NCBI GenBank assembly: GCA_938074525.1
Contig: CALJEX010000040.1
Span: 18-64,017 of the forward strand
Length of the DNA stretch: 64,000 nucleotides
Source: an uncultured Gammaproteobacteria bacterium
GTDB taxonomy: Bacteria; Pseudomonadota; Gammaproteobacteria; UBA4575
Direction: 5' to 3'
The position numbers and the translations under genes are program-made. The notes under the pieces were generated by a model. It saw only the letters and a program-made list of their open reading frames with translations. It was not told where the DNA came from and ran no database searches. Positions within the stretch are counted from its first letter, which is position 1; each line of letters begins with the position of its first letter. Below, piece by piece: positions 15,911 through 18,632 of the stretch.

Positions 15911-16329
15911 GTATGGCTCCATTTCATCTGGCATTTCCTGTCACTAATCTTGCTGCTGTTCGTGAGTTTTATTGTTCGGCATTAAGGTGTGACATTGGCA
16001 GAGAGGGCGATCGCTGGATTGATTTCAACTTCTTTGGTCACCAAATCACTGCGCACTTAGATGGAACTGCTGTGCATCAACCAAGTCGAAATCAAGTGGA
16101 TAATAAAGCAGTGCCTGCGAGACATTTTGGTGTGATTTTGGATTGGAATGCATGGGATGAATTGCTTGCACGCATAAAGTCATATGATATTGCATTCTAT
16201 ATTGAACCGTATACTCGGTTTGCAGGAGAAGCAGGCGAACAAAGAACTTTTTTTATTCAGGATCCAAGCGAAAATTTTTTAGAATTTAAATGTTTTCAAG
16301 ATAAATCTTATATATTTAGAAAAGAATGA
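15907..16329 (+). CDS. VOC-family (glyoxalase/bleomycin-resistance/dioxygenase fold) protein
   Basis: 140 aa. The FHLAFPV N-terminal beta-strand motif is typical of VOC proteins. Translationally coupled to tsaB (ATGA). Confidence 0.6.
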   Translation: MSMAPFHLAFPVTNLAAVREFYCSALRCDIGREGDRWIDFNFFGHQITAHLDGTAVHQPSRNQVDNKAVPARHFGVILDWNAWDELLARIKSYDIAFYIEPYTRFAGEAGEQRTFFIQDPSENFLEFKCFQDKSYIFRKE

Positions 16330-16331
16330 TC

Positions 16332-16694
16332 ATGAAGAAATTAATACTACTATCTTTAATGTTGAGTACTTCAGTGTATGCGCAACCACCACAGGTGGTG
16401 AAAGCAGAAGCTAGCCTAAAAACAAATCAATTATTTGATGTTTAGGTAACAATACGTCATCCCGATACAGGTTGGGATCACTACGCGAACGAATGGATTG
16501 TGTTAGACGGCGATGGTAAAGAGATTGCTAAACGGACCTTATATCATCCTCATGTGAATGAGCAGCCATTCACGCGATATGTTAGAGATATAGTGATTCC
16601 AGCAGATGTTAGCAAAGTAACAATAACGGCAAAATGTAATAAAGGGCATGATTCAAAGCCCTATGTTCTTATGGGTAAAGAAAATAAGCAGTAA
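16332..16694 (+). pseudogene. Small secreted superoxide-reductase-like (desulfoferrodoxin Fe-domain-like) protein interrupted by an in-frame TAG at 16443..16445
   Basis: ATG at 16332 gives a signal peptide MKKLILLSLMLSTSVYA, then QPPQVVKAEASLKTNQLFDV, then TAG, then (same frame) VTIRHPDTGWDHYANEWIVLDGDGKE...TAKCNKGHDSKPYVLMGKENKQ. The segment HPDTxxDHYxxEWIxL plus C-terminal CNxGH resembles the SOR centre-II pattern (IPHPNTTEHHIRYIEL ... CNIHGLW). The track shows only the post-stop piece (16500..16694). Confidence 0.45.
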
Positions 16695-16731
16695 AGTTTT
16701 TCAGGCTTTACTGCTATGTCTCTTATTTGCT

Positions 16732-18451
16732 TTAGTGTCTCTTTTTTTTCACAATGAAGACATTTTTTTGCAGTTCATTGCCGACATTGGTATTGCGCTT
16801 AATTATTTTAGCTAAAGTTGTTTTCTTGATTTTTCTTAGCTCCTTACCCCAAAAATTGTTTTCATACCAGAATCGATCGCCATCACGTAGTCTTTCAAAC
16901 TGATCTTTAAGAGTAGTGTAAAAAACTTCGCCAACCAAGGCATCGTCTATATGATCTTCTGCTAAACCACCTACCCATAAATCGACATGATCAACACTGT
17001 CGTAAGCATTCTCTAGTCTTGCTTGAACTTCTGGGTTAGACGATATTTCTGAGAATGATACTACTGGCTCTAAGCCTAACTTTTTGCGGGTGTCATTATA
17101 GCTGAGTAGGCCGTGATCACGACCTCTTTGGATATTTAATGAAGCTAAATCAAAGCCACCTTTGCCGGGTTGTCCAAATAAGAAATTCCTAACATCGTCT
17201 ATCACGAATATGTCCAAGTTTTGGCAGGTTTGTGATGCTAAACCTCTTAGTATTGGTCCGATATTGCCTTGTTCTGTTAACAGGTGTGGTGCAAAAAATG
17301 CTTCACGCAGTGAGATGTGTCCATGGCGTGTTTCTTTGCCATTCCGATTTAATCTCATAATTCTTAGTGATAATAAACTATGACCTAAGCGATATGCGGC
17401 AGTAGAGAATTCATTTGCTATGCGGGCATCAACGTCAGGCTTGTAACCCTCGTACTTAGATAAGGCATGTTTGCCTAAAAGGACCGGGATGAATTCATTG
17501 TAAGTAATGACTTGCATTTGCGCTGCAACAATACGTCTGGCGCGTTGATAAATTTCATCACCTGACAGGTGATGATTTTTTTGTTTAATCTTTTTGGCAA
17601 GGCGATTGTGTTCGCGAACAAACAAGGTATGCATAGTAGTTAAGCCTATTTGTTCATTTGCACGCACATCACCCGCTAAAAATAATTTGTCACTACTGCC
17701 GCCGGCATTGCTTAAGCCAGCAGTATTAAAAGGTAGTAACCCTTTTTTACTCGTTTTAAGTTTGCCTCAGCCATTCATTTTACGCAGTTCTATAGCACGA
17801 TCTTCATCGGATCCATATACGTTTGAAGCATCTATCCAGCCTGTGATTTCATTTAACTGTTGTCTGGGGTTGGAGCCGGGTTCATAAATTGACCTATTAA
17901 AACTCATGACGACACTTCCTGAGCTGTCTGGGTCGAACTGCGGGTCCCCGCTAGGAATTAAAATTGGTGCTAATTCTTCGGGACTAACGCCATCTGTAAT
18001 ATCTATATCGTGATCTAGGAATTGACCCCATTGCCATAGAAAATCGCTAGCGTGTTTTTTTGTTTGTGTTGAGTTTGTTTGTGACATGACAGCATTGCTA
18101 ATGTCTCTTGGGTTAGGTCTATCAATGCCTGCCATCGCGCTAGATTGATCGCTGTACCCCGCTTCTGTTGTACGAATCAATTCTATATCGGCAGCATTCA
18201 TTTCATGGTCACTCAGATTGTTATTGCTACCATCAATGGTTCTATAAAATATTTCTGAATGATTTTTTTTTATATTTATTATGATTTCTTTCAATTCTTC
18301 TAACAGGAGATGAATTAGGGTTAGACATGGTGTGATCAGCTTGATTTAGAAGGTCTTCGGTAGGGGAGATTCCTTCTGAACTGTCTGATAATGCGTGCGT
18401 TGCATATATTGATATGCATAGCGCGGCTACGCTTATAGAAATATATTTCAT
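16732..18451 (-). pseudogene. Bacterial animal-type heme peroxidase (peroxidase-cyclooxygenase superfamily), disrupted by a +1 frameshift in an A9 run and an in-frame TGA
   Basis: Three track ORFs (18242..18451, 17767..18294, 16732..17667) concatenate into one protein of about 570 aa. It has a signal peptide MKYISISVAALCISIYATHALS, then RTIDGSNNNL, then the distal heme pocket FLWQWGQFLDHDIDIT. Further on are VDASNVYGS, LLPFNTAGLSNAGGSSDKLFLAGDVRANEQIGLTTMHTLFVREHNRLA, the proximal His in YRLGHSLL, and DLWVGGLAEDH. All are hallmark animal heme peroxidase motifs. Frame change at T9 18263..18271 (A9 on the coding strand). In-frame TGA at 17767..17769. Confidence 0.78.
18263..18271 (-). repeat. 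A9 homopolymer (T9 on the plus strand) at the peroxidase frameshift site
   Basis: With A8 instead of A9 the reading becomes continuous: ...RRIERNHNKYKKNHSEIFYRTIDGSNNNL. Confidence 0.7.
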
Positions 18452-18632
18452 TTCAGTCCCTCATTTAAAATGATGTGCTTAAAAGAATAATATTCACTAT
18501 GATTGTGAATTTTTATTTAAAAATTTTTAAATTGTTGTTTTATTTTTTGATTCTTTATTTTTGTCAGATGTAAGCATTTAAGAATGTGAACTAGATCACG
18601 CAATTAACTTTAGTATGTATGGATTTTATTGC

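Follow-up and report, generated by a model that had tools for sequence, protein, structure and literature searches.

A twice-broken secreted haem peroxidase gene, very probably a young pseudogene, in an uncultured marine gammaproteobacterium

The window, that is the whole stretch of 64,000 nucleotides analysed here, is 94% coding. It contains a gene of the secreted animal haem peroxidase family in which the reading frame is broken twice, and no other long open reading frame (ORF) in the window is broken. The peroxidase gene converges with a gene for a small secreted protein, and the hairpin between the two is probably a terminator common to both. The features of the locus are given in Table 1.

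Table 1. Features of the disrupted peroxidase locus (window positions)
Feature	Position	Strand	Remarks
Whole disrupted gene of the secreted animal haem peroxidase family	16732..18451	-	ATG 18451..18449; TAA 16734..16732
N-terminal fragment ORF, 69 amino acids, signal-peptide-like start	18242..18451	-	Out of the peroxidase frame from the A run onward
A9 homopolymer AAAAAAAAA, first lesion (+1 relative to an in-frame A8)	18263..18271	-	Three-frame translation
Central portion of the peroxidase (body frame)	17770..18267	-	Distal-site motif QFLDHD
In-frame TGA, second lesion, in place of a Ser codon	17767..17769	-
C-terminal two thirds, in the same frame as the middle part	16732..17766	-	GDVRANEQ, RLGHS (proximal His), NIQRGRDHG
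GAGGGA, a putative Shine-Dalgarno-like sequence 5 nt before the ATG	18457..18462	-	Read from the sequence
Small secreted-protein gene, convergent to the peroxidase gene	16326..16694	+	In-frame TAG 16443..16445 (QLFDV-stop-VTIRHPD)
13-bp hairpin between the two convergent genes	16687..16715	.	Consensus scan only

Translation of the minus strand in three frames places the change of frame exactly within the nine-A run (18271..18263). The 69 amino acid ORF terminates with ...NHNKYKKKSFRNIL and a stop (KKKSFRNIL-stop), and is offset by one base from the second ORF, 17767..18294, which reads ...KKNHSEIFYRTIDGSNNN... up to the TGA. Past the TGA the same frame runs on (...RKMNG-stop-GKLKTSKKGLLPFNTAG...) to the TAA that ends the gene. 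The ORFs 17767..18294 and 16732..17667 share one frame (1035 = 3 x 345) with the TGA as their sole separator. Removal of one A gives ...NHNKYKKNHSEIFYRTIDG..., and with a sense codon in place of the TGA the repaired product is 572 amino acids long. The first-pass annotation had described the locus in this way, with an A9 run at 18263..18271 and an in-frame TGA at 17767..17769 breaking the peroxidase ORF, one fewer A restoring the frame and the two downstream ORFs being a single frame split by a stop, and it was correct on each of these points. Nowhere else in the 64-kb window is there a homopolymer as long as the A9 run, and runs of eight occur only three times. One of these, an A8 on the coding strand (16742..16749, within the codons for VKKKRH), is found at the 3' end of the peroxidase gene just before the stop.

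The repaired translation was used as query against Pfam, with a cut-off of 25 bits, and matched the PF03098 profile over positions 1-530 of 530 (545.7 bits, E value 1.5e-163). No NCBIfam model matches the peroxidase. The homologues in a large protein collection number thousands, and the closest are 77-84% identical, 571-589 amino acids long and cover 100% of the repaired query. Intact orthologues of 571-576 amino acids, up to 84% identical, align colinearly with the repaired 572 amino acids, and in an alignment of 22 sequences the repaired window sequence is gapless at both lesions. The homology is thus continuous through both breaks, which excludes chance and confirms the observation of one gene broken twice.

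Residues Q143, D146, H147, D148, R263, N265, E266 and H357 are invariant columns in the alignment with the window sequence and also align with the cyanobacterial peroxidase CyanoPOX (PDB 8s6c). All haem-pocket motifs are kept in the window gene, and a signal-peptide-like N-terminus is present. The roles in the haem pocket are presumably those of the distal His in QxxDHD, the distal Arg and Glu in GDxRxNE and the proximal His in RxGHS. An uninterrupted PF03098 frame is not found at the locus, the frame being shifted by +1 at the A9 run and stopped at the TGA; because it is broken twice the locus is classed as a pseudogene of the PF03098 family and not as a working member.

CyanoPOX, from Cyanobacterium sp. 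TDX16, is the closest solved structure, and the repaired protein aligns with it over residues 70-568 (E value 5.6e-169). This lactoperoxidase-like enzyme is a monomer, binds haem b non-covalently and oxidises iodide and aromatic compounds (PMC11776367). The active-site motifs QFLDHD, GDVRANEQ and RLGHS are found also in the repaired window protein, whereas the frame in the window is broken twice and would give no enzyme by standard decoding; the window gene also has an additional N-terminal segment resembling a signal peptide. The kept haem-pocket motifs together with this N-terminus suggest that the ancestor of the window gene was probably an exported peroxidase of the CyanoPOX kind.

A scan of species-representative genomes gave 80 peroxidase loci. 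Four uncultured gammaproteobacterial genomes (L001, L002, L003 and L005) have the gene as an intact single ORF of 574-575 amino acids in the same position as in the window, and share with it the order pepA, holC, valS, lysE, peroxidase, small ORF, glyoxalase-like, tsaB-like, dinG, ispF and ispD. A comparison with orthologues in related strains had been proposed in the first-pass annotation, and in these four related genomes the gene is intact and in frame. The intact syntenic copies argue that the peroxidase gene is vertically inherited in the clade and is broken, among these genomes, only in the window lineage.

Split copies were also encountered elsewhere in the family. A 77% identical peroxidase in a similar neighbourhood (L091:5001-6717, ENA ERZ26696264 contig_1) is split into parts of 337 and 209 amino acids by a single additional A near L091:5985 (AAG AAT > AAG AAA T). 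Either a separate loss of the gene or a homopolymer error in long reads could account for this. A 199 amino acid query spanning the TGA matched many peroxidase-family proteins of 300-350 amino acids on long contigs (e.g. P0160, P0162, P0167 and P0171), and split or truncated copies of the family may not be rare in other bacteria.

Exact products of the locus were looked up in public assemblies and the hits were aligned to the window; they are assembled contigs from five runs, representing at least three accession series. The 69 amino acid product, which requires the frameshift, is called identically on four contigs (ERR9287632, ERR9287633, DRR380379 and DRR380378). The product of 144 amino acids ending at the TGA is called on a DRR671437 contig, and the TGA-ended product of 175 amino acids is likewise found on an independent contig. 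Five Logan contigs (L081-L085) are 99.6-99.9% identical to the window, without gaps and with 1-6 SNPs each. The A9 run is present in all five, and the TGA in both of those that extend to the site (L082 and L084). At position 18181 the window carries the minority allele, and this together with the SNPs in each contig means that no contig copies the window assembly. A further contig, L092, is identical to the window over 16732..17582 of the peroxidase gene.

A different tract length is found in L086 (ENA assembly ERZ23498582, 651 nt, about 98% identical), where the run is A7 and out of frame in the opposite direction, giving a 78 amino acid variant (...NHNKYKKIIQKYF...); the A7 allele comes from this single 651-nt contig. 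Over seven sequences, the window included, the tract is A9 in six, A7 in one and A8 in none. L086 has in addition a 5-nt insertion before window position 18454, between GAGGGA and the peroxidase ATG, so that these are 10 nt apart instead of 5; it could represent an additional lesion. In L084 (ERR9287633) two G>A substitutions on the coding strand, 4 nt apart at 17124 and 17120, turn NIQRGRDHG into NIQRSHDHG (G>S and R>H). The two changes lie in a motif that is invariant in the family, as expected under lifted constraint, and they fit relaxed constraint, with an assembly error as the alternative.

An intact allele of the same species was found neither in the contigs nor in the protein collection. 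Among the matches listed in the protein collection there was no full-length or read-through allele above 90% identity, the best full-length match being 84% identical, and the matches of the TGA-spanning query at 99-100% identity were the two flanking fragments only, with no read-through allele. A DNA pattern scan of JGI metagenome contigs, allowing a variable tract length, gave four unrelated chance matches and added no strains. Exact-product look-ups gave no match for the glyoxalase neighbour, for the C-terminal fragments of 311 and 300 amino acids or for the 64 amino acid fragment of the small ORF, and no mention of the run or sample accessions was found in the literature.

The closest syntenic relative reads TAT AAA AAA CAT at the tract, an A6 in frame, and the repaired window sequence reads TAT AAA AAA AAT; the tract of L001 is A6. 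The frame is intact in 21 of 21 aligned homologues and in five syntenic relatives, and the frameshift is thus not conserved. The A9 run sits exactly at the junction of the frames, where a slippery sequence would be placed. Runs of nine A or T give efficient transcriptional slippage in bacteria and are able to rescue interrupted genes (PMC5009743), and interrupted genes rescued by transcriptional slippage at poly-A runs have been described (PMC4256274). A fraction of the transcripts could in this way be brought back into frame by RNA polymerase slippage at the A9 run. The window gene has the interrupting nine-A run in common with slippage-rescued genes such as Citrobacter rodentium tssM1, Thermus dnaX and endosymbiont genes (PMC4256274, PMC5009743) but differs from them in that the frameshift is unconserved in relatives, occurs in two out-of-frame lengths and is followed by a stop codon downstream.

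At the position of the TGA five relatives have TCC, TCA, TCT, TCT and TCG, all encoding Ser, and TCA to TGA is one C>G step. In the 22-sequence alignment the 15 closest homologues have Ser in this column and the remaining 6 have Thr, and one nearly invariant and one invariant Gly flank it. The proposal in the first-pass annotation that the TGA lies in a non-conserved linker does therefore not hold within the bacterial subfamily, yet the residue is deleted in CyanoPOX. Of the 51 long ORFs in the window 14 end in TGA, among them dinG, ispD and tsaB, whose stop is likewise followed by G (TGA-G). The ends of these three genes match the ends of the ortholog alignments to within three residues, and dinG has the orthologue length of 642 amino acids. 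This use of stop codons speaks against a variant genetic code in which TGA would be read as sense, and that option is rejected.

A hairpin with a free energy of -21.3 kcal/mol (z -2.87) is predicted 16-45 nt after the TGA, contrary to the earlier statement that no SECIS-like hairpin is present within about 40 nt downstream. L001, with TCC (Ser) at the position, forms this hairpin too, and in the other relatives it is lost; it follows from the codons of the conserved peptide KKGLLPF. An Rfam search gave no relevant match at the locus. The locus resembles bacterial UGA-selenocysteine genes in having an in-frame UGA followed by a hairpin but differs in that the homologues have Ser or Thr and not Cys, that the hairpin is shared by a gene without the UGA and that a frameshift lies upstream. 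Selenocysteine, which had been considered unlikely for want of a hairpin, is rejected on other grounds, namely the Ser or Thr in place of Cys in the 21 homologues, the gap in CyanoPOX, the unspecific hairpin and the Rfam result.

Synonymous sites between species are saturated (pS 0.75-0.92), and relative rates of dN were used instead of dN/dS. The dN to L003 is 0.204 for the window, compared with 0.209 and 0.193 for intact relatives, and the dN to L020 is 0.280, compared with 0.280 and 0.302. At columns where all 21 homologues agree the window has zero unique changes. Among the 12 closest sequences it has two unique amino acid changes (plus the stop), and most intact sequences have no fewer. 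The A7 and A9 strains differ by 3 nonsynonymous and 5 synonymous substitutions, a ratio that looks like purifying selection. A coding sequence with no extra amino acid changes points to a recent inactivation; the comparison indicates that it would predate the 0.1-0.4% diversification of the A9 strains, yet be very recent relative to the divergence of the species. The absence of decay fits a very young pseudogene and would equally fit a gene that is still expressed through recoding.

Taken together, this locus of an uncultured marine gammaproteobacterium is very probably a true, young and ordinary unitary pseudogene belonging to a known enzyme family. The observations are the two lesions and their recurrence in independent assemblies, the syntenic orthologues that are intact in L001, L002, L003 and L005, the ordinary service of TGA as a stop in the window and the lack of extra amino acid changes. 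The likeness to ordinary bacterial pseudogenes caused by a homopolymer indel and a nonsense mutation lies in a gene that is intact in the same position in relatives and in lesions that are shared in the population. There is no essential difference from these, the window locus being young and undecayed with an apparent ribosome-binding site still in place. A genuine pseudogene was the first of the options listed in the first-pass annotation, which also named confirmation by lesions fixed in multiple isolates; the latter check, run in part, gave five contigs sharing A9, and both contigs that reach the second site sharing the TGA, in support of the pseudogene.

The same annotation had also considered a homopolymer sequencing error plus a real nonsense mutation. 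If both lesions were artefacts, the true gene would have A8 and a sense codon and be intact, and a homopolymer miscall as well as a base error would lie in the window. Homopolymers are typical sites of error, the A9 run is the longest in the window and the window is taken from a metagenome-type contig of 66,479 nt. The A9 run is however common to five separately assembled contigs and the TGA to two, all of which differ from the window by SNPs elsewhere, the remaining window is without frameshifted genes and the protein collection has no intact allele among the matches listed. At the level of contigs the lesions shared between independent assemblies lead us to reject a sequencing error, and the probability left for an artefact is minute.

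The remaining option, slippage or modulation of the stop codon, found no support. A functional gene with recoding would combine polymerase slippage at A9 (-1 A or +2) with read-through of the UGA, by a near-cognate tRNA or selenocysteine, to give low amounts of full-length peroxidase. The efficient slippage of nine-A or nine-T runs in bacteria (PMC5009743, PMC4256274), the undecayed coding sequence and the stable hairpin 16-45 nt after the UGA are in agreement with this, but it is very unlikely: the tract of the relatives is an A6 in frame, opposite corrections are needed for the A7 and A9 alleles, TGA-G is the ordinary terminator of dinG, ispD and tsaB, the UGA column has Ser or Thr in the homologues and no residue in CyanoPOX, and the hairpin is a by-product of coding. 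Two independent events of low efficiency would, moreover, multiply to a negligible yield. A phase-variable contingency gene, switched on and off by slipped-strand mispairing in the poly-A run and by chance off in the sampled populations, is just as doubtful. The homopolymer does lie in the 5' part of the coding sequence just after the signal peptide and its length differs between strains (A9 and A7), but the A8 (on) allele is found in 0 of 7 sequences and not among the matches listed in the protein collection, the downstream TGA would cut the on-phase product before the proximal His and the relatives have no long tract. There is likewise only a slim chance that the A run acts as a site of transcriptional slippage or a slow phase switch and, together with a leaky UGA-G, allows small and variable amounts of secreted peroxidase. 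If so, the absence of amino acid decay and the synonymous bias of the A7/A9 differences would reflect continuing selection.

For the pseudogene, we infer in which order and by what mechanism the mutations arose, and that function was lost. The gene, which encoded a secreted haem peroxidase and was inherited vertically, would have been switched off recently in a species-level lineage by two independent mutations. A CAT>AAT substitution (His to Asn) would have lengthened A6 to A8, and replication slippage on A8 would then have added one A in the window lineage (A9) and removed one in L086 (A7). The A9 run would end translation initiated at the signal peptide after 69 codons. The second mutation would be a single C>G change, of the Ser codon TCA to TGA, 166 codons further on in the gene, and even a frame-corrected message would still stop ahead of the parts containing the haem-pocket Arg and Glu and the proximal His. 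No functional peroxidase would be made, and the DNA would simply not yet have decayed further.

The three ORFs of 69, 175 and 311 amino acids should be annotated as one peroxidase pseudogene; annotation as three separate genes, or as a gene for an intact enzyme, would be wrong. Beyond correct annotation the significance is small. The locus illustrates how one substitution that lengthens a homopolymer, here from A6 to A8, may create a mutational weak point. In at least one species of a clade of uncultured marine gammaproteobacteria, a secreted haem peroxidase that the clade conserves would be dispensable. Should transcript data exist, the locus could also offer a natural test, on a small scale, of whether slippage occurs at A9.

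The small convergent gene, on the strand opposite to the peroxidase gene, is interrupted by a TAG. Its relatives have Ala at this position and one intact ORF of about 120 amino acids. In L092, an ERR9287632 contig that is 99.87% identical to the window over 3119 nt, the site is TCG (Ser) and the ORF of 122 amino acids is intact; the TAG is therefore a single-base change at the strain level, younger than the peroxidase lesions. The small-protein family has 345 hits, and no Pfam, NCBIfam or PDB sequence match was found for the protein. The structure model (md893bc938615), which is confident (pLDDT 88.7), is an immunoglobulin-like sandwich of seven strands, and a signal peptide is present. Fold matches are weak and generic Ig-like, with E values of 6e-3 for superoxide reductase (1do6) and 2e-2 for CopC. 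His45, His74 and His76 are invariant and His52 nearly so, and this pattern together with the HPHVNEQPF motif suggests a periplasmic metal site.

The small gene adjoins the peroxidase gene in 5 of the 80 scanned loci and in the separately fetched relative L091, that is in the close clade only. A general two-gene module of peroxidase and small secreted protein was largely rejected on these counts and because a Cocleimonas homologue has no peroxidase neighbour, and a functional link between the two proteins is not supported. The peroxidase gene and the small secreted-protein gene, the only two broken genes noticed in the window, adjoin each other.
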